Positions 1 through 486 of a stretch of DNA of 486 nt are shown in pieces (within the stretch, counting starts at the first letter, position 1; each line of letters starts with the position of its first letter). The notes below the pieces were generated by a model. That model saw only the letters and a program-made list of their open reading frames with translations. It was not told the DNA's origin and did no database searches. Both the position numbers and the translations under genes were made by a program. The DNA comes from a phage: the sequence record EF517058.1. One strand, given 5' to 3'.

Positions 1-134
1 CTCGTAAAGAGGCCACACAGTCACGCGCTCTGGCGATTCGCTCCAACGAACTGGCTAACAGTGCATCCACTAAAGTTACCGAGGCTGCTCGTGTGGCAAA
101 CCAAGCTCAACAGCTTTCCAAATTTTTTGAGTAA
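1..134 (+). CDS. 3' end of a small phage ORF (start lies upstream of the window); position matches T7 gene 4.3, hypothetical protein
   Basis: Frame 3 (codons from nt 3) is open to TAA at 132-134 and reads RKEATQSRALAIRSNELANSASTKVTEAARVANQAQQLSKFFE*, an Ala/Gln-rich, helix-like and protein-like composition. The alternative open frame 1 over the same bases gives a W/H/P/R-rich, non-protein-like translation. The stop lies 19 nt before the next start codon, as I recall for T7 genes 4.3/4.5. No start codon is visible because the gene begins upstream. Confidence 0.6.
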   Translation, partial: RKEATQSRALAIRSNELANSASTKVTEAARVANQAQQLSKFFE

Positions 135-140
135 TCAAAC

Positions 141-145
141 AGGAA
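141..145 (+). promoter_or_regulatory. Shine-Dalgarno / ribosome-binding site for the 154-423 ORF
   Basis: AGGAA at 141-145, with a 9-nt spacer from the AGGA core to the ATG at 154; lies in the short gap after the upstream stop codon. Confidence 0.6.
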
Positions 146-153
146 AAACCATT

Positions 154-423
154 ATGTCTAACGTAGCTGAAACTATCCGTCTATCCGATACAGCTGATCA
201 GTGGAACCGTCGAGTCCACATCAACGTTCGCAACGGTAAGGCGACTATGGTTTACCGCTGGAAGGACTCTAAGTCCTCTAAGAATCACACTCAGCGTATG
301 ACGTTGACAGATGAGCAAGCACTGCGTCTGGTCAATGCGCTTACTAAAGCTGCCGTGACAGCAATTCATGAAGCTAGTCGCGTCAATGAAGCTATGGCTA
401 TCCTCGACAAGATTGATAACTAA
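154..423 (+). CDS. 4.5: Small phage protein, 89 aa; likely a homologue of T7 gp4.5 (reported Lon protease-binding/inhibiting protein)
   Basis: ATG at 154 preceded by an SD; open frame to TAA at 421-423 (270 nt, 89 codons plus stop). Translation: MSNVAETIRLSDTADQWNRRVHINVRNGKATMVYRWKDSKSSKNHTQRMTLTDEQALRLVNALTKAAVTAIHEASRVNEAMAILDKIDN. Length, the 19-nt gap from the upstream gene, and the downstream hairpin and T7-type promoter match my recollection of the T7 gene 4.5 locus. The sequence-level match to gp4.5 is not verified. Confidence 0.85.
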   Translation: MSNVAETIRLSDTADQWNRRVHINVRNGKATMVYRWKDSKSSKNHTQRMTLTDEQALRLVNALTKAAVTAIHEASRVNEAMAILDKIDN

Positions 424-473
424 GAGTGGTATCCTCAAGGTCGCCAAAGTGGTGGCCTTCATGAATACTATTC
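424..473 (+). promoter_or_regulatory. Bipartite RNA hairpin with internal loop; candidate RNase III processing site (position matches T7 R4.7)
   Basis: Lower stem 424-432 (GAGUGGUAU) pairs with 465-473 (AUACUAUUC): 9 bp including 2 G-U. Internal loop 433-436 / 460-464. Upper stem 437-445 (AAGGUCGCC) pairs with 451-459 (GGUGGCCUU): 9 bp including 2 G-U. Apical loop 446-450 (AAAGU). Two stems around an internal bubble is the architecture of T7 RNase III sites. No U-tract follows, so it is not an intrinsic terminator. Confidence 0.45.
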
Positions 474-486
474 GACTCACTATAAG
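468..486 (+). promoter_or_regulatory. T7 RNA polymerase-type (class II) promoter, truncated at window end; position matches T7 phi4.7
   Basis: CTATTCGACTCACTATAAG aligns to the T7 consensus TAATACGACTCACTATAGG. The core -12 to -1 (CGACTCACTATA, 473-484) matches exactly. Differences are at -17, -16, -13 and +1 (A at 485 instead of G). Downstream bases are outside the window. Confidence 0.65.

Follow-up and report, generated by a model that had tools for sequence, protein, structure and literature searches.

A two-stem hairpin after gene 4.5 corresponds to the RNase III processing signal R4.7 of bacteriophage T7

The hairpin that directly follows gene 4.5 in the 486-base stretch of DNA analysed here (the window) is very probably the RNase III processing signal R4.7 of bacteriophage T7, acting by the single-cleavage mechanism set out below. 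The R4.7 element is already known, and the hairpin at positions 424–473 is confirmed to be real. A preliminary description, made from the letters of the window, had proposed an RNase III signal of the T7 R4.7 type at this place. That assignment is borne out by the identity of positions 424–484 to T7 and by a covariance model which, trained on the other T7 sites, matches exactly 424–473. Structure, conservation, covariation, identity to T7, family membership and the overlap with the neighbouring promoter were all established in the present analysis. The result is a confirmation and leaves the current understanding of R4.7 unchanged.

Sequence identity and layout of the window

The window corresponds to bacteriophage T7 13431–13916 in the numbering of V01146/NC_001604, such that a window position equals the T7 position minus 13430. 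Pairwise alignment over this range gave 98.4% identity with 8 substitutions, and megablast gave 98.6% identity for window positions 1–484. No exact copy of the window was found in the phage collection, where the best match had 98.6% identity. Positions 424–484 are 100% identical to T7 13854–13914. Since none of the 8 substitutions falls within this interval, the hairpin region is base for base the T7 sequence. The comparison with T7 R4.7 (T7 ~13854–13903) that had been suggested at the outset therefore shows one and the same element, and its flanks, gene 4.5 and the promoter phi4.7, are also the same. Reference T7 and the window do not differ within the hairpin; all 8 differences lie elsewhere, and one of them is at the +1 position of phi4.7.

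The hairpin lies on the + strand between genes 4.5 and 4.7, downstream of phi4.3 and with no terminator in between. The TAA stop codon of the gene 4.5 open reading frame occupies positions 421–423 and the structure starts at G424, which agrees with the original placement of the hairpin directly after the stop codon. In T7 records, phi4.7 starts at 13915 (window 485), and the start codon of gene 4.7 lies 12 nt past this start, outside the window. The features are listed in Table 1.

Table 1 Features of the window and elements of the R4.7 hairpin
Feature	Position	Strand	Remarks
Gene 4.3, 3' part	1–134	+	T7 annotation 13352–13564; upstream cistron, on the same processed mRNA
Gene 4.5, 89 codons and TAA	154–423	+	Open reading frame; T7 annotation 13584–13853
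Lower stem, 5' arm (GAGUGGUAU)	424–432	+	Pairs with 465–473; 5 of 9 lower-stem pairs compensatory in orthologs
Internal loop, 5' side (CCUC)	433–436	+	Unpaired in the centroid structure
Upper stem, 5' arm (AAGGUCGCC)	437–445	+	Holds the proximal-box-like AAGG
Apical loop (AAAGU)	446–450	+	A446-U450 may close a triloop
Upper stem, 3' arm (GGUGGCCUU)	451–459	+	9 bp with 437–445, from fold and ortholog alignments
Internal loop, 3' side (CAUGA)	460–464	+	Predicted scissile bond between U462 and G463
Lower stem, 3' arm (AUACUAUUC)	465–473	+	Last 6 nt are −17 to −12 of phi4.7
Promoter phi4.7, −17 to +2 (window end)	468–486	+	T7 records: start 13915, window 485

Structure and stability of the hairpin

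The RNA of positions 424–473 folds with a minimum free energy (MFE) of −21.7 kcal/mol. Dinucleotide shuffles of the same sequence reach a mean of −9.25 kcal/mol with a standard deviation of 2.35 (z = −5.30), with not one of the 200 equalling the stability of the hairpin, so that the fold holds up against shuffled controls. The architecture is the one originally described: two stems of 9 bp each, separated by an asymmetric internal loop, which is of the 4/5 type with CCUC (433–436) opposite CAUGA (460–464). The lower stem includes two G.U pairs and was also recovered de novo by RNAalifold. The 5' arm of the upper stem forms U.G and C-G pairs that it has in common with R1.1. A446 and U450 can add a weak tenth pair to the upper stem, with a probability of 0.59; this pair is missing in 9 of the 15 distinct orthologs.

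The hairpin is the MFE structure both in the context of positions 380–486 and in that of T7 13800–13990. When the whole window is folded, the hairpin pairs have an ensemble probability of about 0.89. The nominal MFE structure of the whole window lacks the hairpin and pairs the region with coding sequence; its frequency is 8e-8, and it is ahead of the best structure with the hairpin by only 0.2 kcal/mol. This nominal MFE is uninformative, as the competing pairing makes use of translated sequence and of an arbitrary window cut.

An inverted repeat is also present within gene 4.5, at 231–239 and 252–260 (CAACGGTAA and TTACCGCTG, 89% complementary), where the R-site model finds a weak match on the − strand (12.9 bits, E 0.018). 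Positions 253–259 are the ones that pair with the 5' arm of the hairpin in the nominal whole-window MFE structure. The repeat is probably due to chance.

Comparison with the RNase III sites of T7

The exact motif AAGGTC-N9-15-GGCCTT occurs in 4 copies in the whole T7 genome, compared to 0.03 expected, and all of them are intergenic and on the + strand. When one mismatch was allowed in each half-site, matches were about as numerous as in shuffled sequence, and this loose search was replaced by the exact motif and a covariance model. With relaxed matching, related cores are found at eight places in T7. Adding 3 to the end of each core yields positions 890, 1468, 3138, 5887, 6448, 13892, 18563 and 36856, which we take to be the RNase III cleavage sites R0.3, R0.5, R1, R1.1, R1.3, R4.7, R6.5 and R18.5. 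The cleavage coordinates reportedly go back to the work of Dunn and Studier in 1983, with 13892 as that of R4.7, and the register of core end plus 3 agrees with them at 8 of 8 sites. Judging from the register of the other sites and the reported coordinate 13892, the scissile bond of R4.7 is predicted to lie most likely after U462, between CAU and GAA (T7 13892 and 13893). Cleavage 3 nt past GGCCUU would thus be common to R4.7 and the other T7 R sites, and the predicted bond between 462 and 463 falls within the range of about 460–464 that had been put forward for cleavage in the loop.

A covariance model of the two-stem structure was trained on R0.3, R0.5, R1, R1.1, R1.3, R6.5 and R18.5, leaving out R4.7. 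In the window, this leave-one-out model matched positions 424–473 on the + strand with 53.4 bits (E 1.3e-13). In a search of the whole T7 genome with filters off, the seven training sites and R4.7 scored between 46.7 and 64.5 bits. R4.7 was the only non-training match above 17.2 bits, which is the score of the next match, and in a joint covariance model it scores mid-range within the family.

With 51 positions and 7 sites behind it, the model places 8 sites at 46.7 bits or above versus a background of at most 17.2 bits. R3.8, at 11.4 bits, and R13 escape the model and seem to form a structurally distinct subclass. A search of the window with the Rfam covariance models, on both strands and up to E = 10, gave 0 matches; Rfam 15 seems to contain no family for the T7 R sites.

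The two-stem architecture with an asymmetric loop is common to R4.7 and the seven training sites, as is the core (A)CUCAAGGUC...GGCCUU(U/C)AUGA. In R4.7, AAGGUC...GGCCUU is followed by YAUGA on the 3' side of the loop. The loop itself reads CAUGA in R4.7, whereas other T7 sites have UAUGA, and the apical loop of R4.7 is short, with 3–5 nt. On the 5' side of the loop, NCUC is kept in the orthologs and in the T7 paralogs R0.3, R0.5, R1.1, R6.5 and R18.5. R1.1, the biochemical model substrate, has the same proximal box (AAGG/CCUU) and the same middle pairs (U.G, C-G) as R4.7. According to the box rule set of PMC1540722, the optimal distal-box pairs of R1.1 are A-U and U.G. The distal-box pairs of R4.7 differ from this optimum: they are G.U and C-G, which are those of R0.5 and R1.3.

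This departure raises the question whether the hairpin might bind RNase III or block exonucleases without being cleaved, and so serve purely for RNA protection or regulation. Binding-competent but cleavage-resistant variants of R1.1 do exist (PMC1540722). We nevertheless consider an uncleaved hairpin highly unlikely. Its proximal box and the 3' side of its loop are as in cleaved sites, and its distal box is as in R0.5 and R1.3. Furthermore, Jack et al. 2017 (PMC5592923), redrawing Dunn & Studier, give R4.7, along with R3.8, R6.5 and R18.5, as a strong cleavage site.

A stable, GC-containing hairpin right after a stop codon would also be expected of a terminator or pause signal, at which E. coli or T7 RNA polymerase would end the gene 4.5 transcripts directly. 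Several findings make this extremely unlikely. The U-run that an intrinsic or T7 class I terminator would have is not present past the stem, where the next bases are GACUCACUAUA (GACTCACTATA); an intrinsic terminator scan of the window gave 0 sites; and ATCTGTT, the pause/termination motif of T7 class II, does not occur. Only TE and Tphi are annotated as terminators in T7 records. In addition, termination would leave unexplained the near-invariant loop that is common to seven RNase III sites. A sigma-70 promoter scan of the window found none.

Conservation in related phages

To compare the element across phages, we used loci encoding gp4.5 relatives together with annotated relatives. In every relative fetched, the hairpin is present directly after the gene 4.5 homologue. 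A model-guided alignment of 28 orthologs, of which 15 are distinct, showed that 95.1% of stem cells pair and that 8 of 19 pairs are compensatory. None of 500 shuffles reached the observed pairing and compensatory values, and all 500 were exceeded on 4 of 5 covariation measures. Sliding the 3' partners by 1–3 columns resulted in 37–62% pairing and at most 2 compensatory pairs. Because the model-guided alignment is fitted to the model, an independent run with MAFFT and RNAalifold was added. Using 13 diverse sequences with flanks, it recovered 9 + 9 bp de novo, with 7 of 18 pairs compensatory. Covariation in the orthologs thus indicates that selection maintains both stems. The internal-loop sequences NCUC and YAUGA are nearly invariant in the orthologs, which is expected of a recognition and cleavage element and not of a mere spacer.

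A chance hairpin in an intergenic spacer, for which only the base rate speaks, has next to no probability. It is refuted by the shuffles of the hairpin (z = −5.3, 0 of 200), by the leave-one-out covariance model (E ~1e-13) and by covariation above all 500 shuffles on 4 of 5 measures.

Given that the hairpin adjoins and overlaps a promoter, one could instead assume a DNA-level inverted repeat, such as a cruciform, an upstream element of phi4.7 or a protein-binding palindrome, with the RNA fold being incidental. The fold is strand-specific, however: the reverse complement of the hairpin reaches only −13.1 kcal/mol, compared to −21.7 kcal/mol for the + strand, because the G.U pairs turn into A-C mismatches. 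An inverted-repeat scan of the window did not report the hairpin, owing to its G.U pairs and its internal loop. Covariation preserves RNA pairs, including exchanges between G.U and G-C, and the hairpin is kept in T3, phiSG-JL2 and Vi06 with no promoter after it. A DNA-level repeat is therefore an almost negligible alternative to an RNA processing signal.

The records of three relatives name the ortholog R4.7. In Yersinia phage R (JX000007), positions 11531–11579 are annotated as 'R4.7; RNase III single-stranded RNA cleavage site'; this feature comprises 49 nt right after gene 4.5 and has a 5-nt overlap with the phi4.7 feature of that phage. The same record annotates the homologous sites R0.3, R1, R1.1, R1.3, R3.8, R4.7, R6.5 and R13. 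In the T3 RefSeq entry (NC_003298), the stem_loop at 12970–13018 is annotated as 'RNase III recognition site R4.7', and the orthologous stem-loop of phiSG-JL2 (EU547803, 13920–13968) is likewise annotated as R4.7. The orthologs in T3, phiSG-JL2 and Yersinia phage R resemble the T7 element in their position after gene 4.5, their core and their structure. In T3 and phiSG-JL2, unlike in T7, the next feature is gene 5; both lack gene 4.7 and phi4.7, and the hairpin consequently has no promoter overlap. No RNase III sites were found in the feature tables examined for V01146, NC_001604 and AY264774, and the annotation support for R4.7 thus comes from the relatives.

Gene 4.5 of T3-like phages, including T3 and phiSG-JL2, ends in tandem stop codons (TGA-TAA) that are overlapped by the 5' arm of the hairpin (AAGUGAUAA), such that the last part of the coding sequence has bases in common with the RNA structure. 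This overlap is found at 859–907 in loci L026–L030, at 471–519 in L035 (T3) and at 280–328 in L034. Salmonella phage Vi06 (loci L006 and L021), which belongs to the genus Teseptimavirus, keeps the R4.7 hairpin and has neither phi4.7 nor gene 4.7. In Vi06, the hairpin is followed by unrelated sequence and, ~115 nt later, by a predicted DNA polymerase feature that is flagged as a pseudogene.

Model for processing at R4.7

Jack et al. 2019 (PMC6938266) use R4.7 as one of the ten T7 RNase sites. In RNase III substrates of this kind, an internal loop allows only a single phosphodiester to be cut, and the 3' hairpin left behind guards the RNA against 3'-5' exonucleases (Pertzev & Nicholson 2006, PMC1540722; Nicholson 2014, PMC3867540). 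The strong-site status of R4.7 and the mechanism of single cleavage and stabilization are taken from the literature, and we infer the exact scissile bond and the consequences for this mRNA.

RNA that is read through from phi4.3, phi4c, phi3.8 and earlier promoters would fold into an irregular hairpin of ~20 bp, or about two helical turns, the quasi-continuous helix of which would be bound by host RNase III. Because of the distortion that the internal loop imposes on the target site, RNase III would cut one strand only, on the 3' side of the loop. It would do so once, most likely at the bond predicted above between U462 and G463. The upstream mRNA (genes ...4.3–4.5) would then end in the upper hairpin of 9–10 bp followed by CAU-3'OH. 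The upper hairpin with CAU has a folding energy of −13.8 kcal/mol, and in its terminal position it would shield the upstream mRNA from 3'→5' exonucleases. Gene 4.5 would be the last gene on transcripts ending at this processed 3' end. The downstream RNA would begin 34 nt before the AUG of gene 4.7. Transcripts started at phi4.7 (+1 = 485) lack the hairpin and would not be processed at R4.7. The idea of a stabilizing 3' end, as put forward in the preliminary description, fits the accepted mechanism of single-cleavage RNase III substrates (PMC1540722, PMC3867540).

In the literature searched, we found no end-mapping RNA-seq specific to R4.7. According to PMC6938266, citing Nicholson 1999, T7 grows on RNase III-deficient hosts, so that a fitness role of R4.7 processing is only putative. 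Which T7 mRNAs are stable depends in part on RNase III sites, and models of T7 gene expression make use of these sites.

Overlap with the promoter phi4.7

The sequence of phi4.7 in the window is CTATTCGACTCACTATA followed by AG at the start site, and the full promoter from −17 to +6 would span 468–490. Positions 468–473 belong to both the 3' arm of the lower stem and the −17 to −12 region of phi4.7. The end of the hairpin had been placed inside this region of the promoter, and its last base, 473, is indeed −12 of phi4.7. The overlap at 468–473 is real, and the claim that the same DNA serves as RNA signal and as promoter stands in this respect. The hairpin does not depend on the promoter overlap for its maintenance: where phi4.7 and gene 4.7 are both missing (L026–L030, T3 and phiSG-JL2 among the T3-like phages, and Vi06), it is conserved to the same degree. 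The overlap exemplifies how densely T7 intergenic DNA is coded, with bases put to dual use.

Overlaps between R sites and promoters are common: the annotation of Yersinia phage R shows them for R1.1/phi1.1A, R1.3/phi1.3, R3.8/phi3.8, R6.5/phi6.5 and R13/phi13. R4.7 differs in being located upstream of its neighbouring promoter, whereas R1.1, R1.3, R3.8, R6.5 and R13 are found downstream of their promoters or around them. At R6.5, a complete consensus phi6.5 is found inside an enlarged apical loop (18502–18574 in T7, locus L033; 15812–15883 in locus L032). This arrangement is the reverse of that of R4.7 and phi4.7, and R6.5 is otherwise a typical R-site hairpin.

None of the other promoters among the 17 annotated in T7 departs from the consensus TAATACGACTCACTATAGGGAGA as far as phi4.7 does, with 7 mismatches, 3 of which fall in −17 to −12. 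One tentative explanation, which we find conceivable but would not call probable, is that the hairpin is older and that phi4.7, together with gene 4.7, was put together on this pre-existing 3' arm within the T7 lineage, with the stem holding −17 to −12 off consensus and thereby making phi4.7 the most divergent promoter. The presence of the hairpin without the promoter in T3-like phages and Vi06 and the divergence of phi4.7 are the observations that point this way. The 5' arm of the lower stem is non-coding and could co-vary, so a constraint on the promoter is not forced; the divergence of phi4.7 is compatible with a stem-imposed constraint and does not prove it. If true, an older hairpin would provide a concrete case of an RNA structure constraint setting promoter strength.

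Substitutions relative to reference T7

The window differs from T7 at positions 57, 89, 125, 145, 198, 345, 376 and 485. All of these differences are G->A or C->T, with 4 of each. In seven natural relatives, G->A and C->T together account for 51 of 175 substitutions (29%) in the same region. The one-directional spectrum from G:C to A:T suggests a chemically mutagenised or laboratory-evolved T7 lineage.

Two of the substitutions lie in signals for gene expression. Position 145 (G->A) is within the Shine-Dalgarno region of gene 4.5, which changes from AGGAGAAACCATTATG to AGGAAAAACC..., and translation of gp4.5 may be lower as a result. Position 485 is the initiating base of phi4.7: it is A in the window and G in T7, and none of the fetched relatives has A here. 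A is also the annotated +1 base of two natural T7 promoters, phiOL and phi2.5, and given these precedents it may be tolerated at +1 of phi4.7. Within the coding sequences, the substitutions at 57 and 376 are non-synonymous, resulting in D46N in gp4.3 and G75S in gp4.5, and the other four coding changes are synonymous. In the records of several relatives, gp4.5 is annotated as inhibiting a host toxin/antitoxin system.
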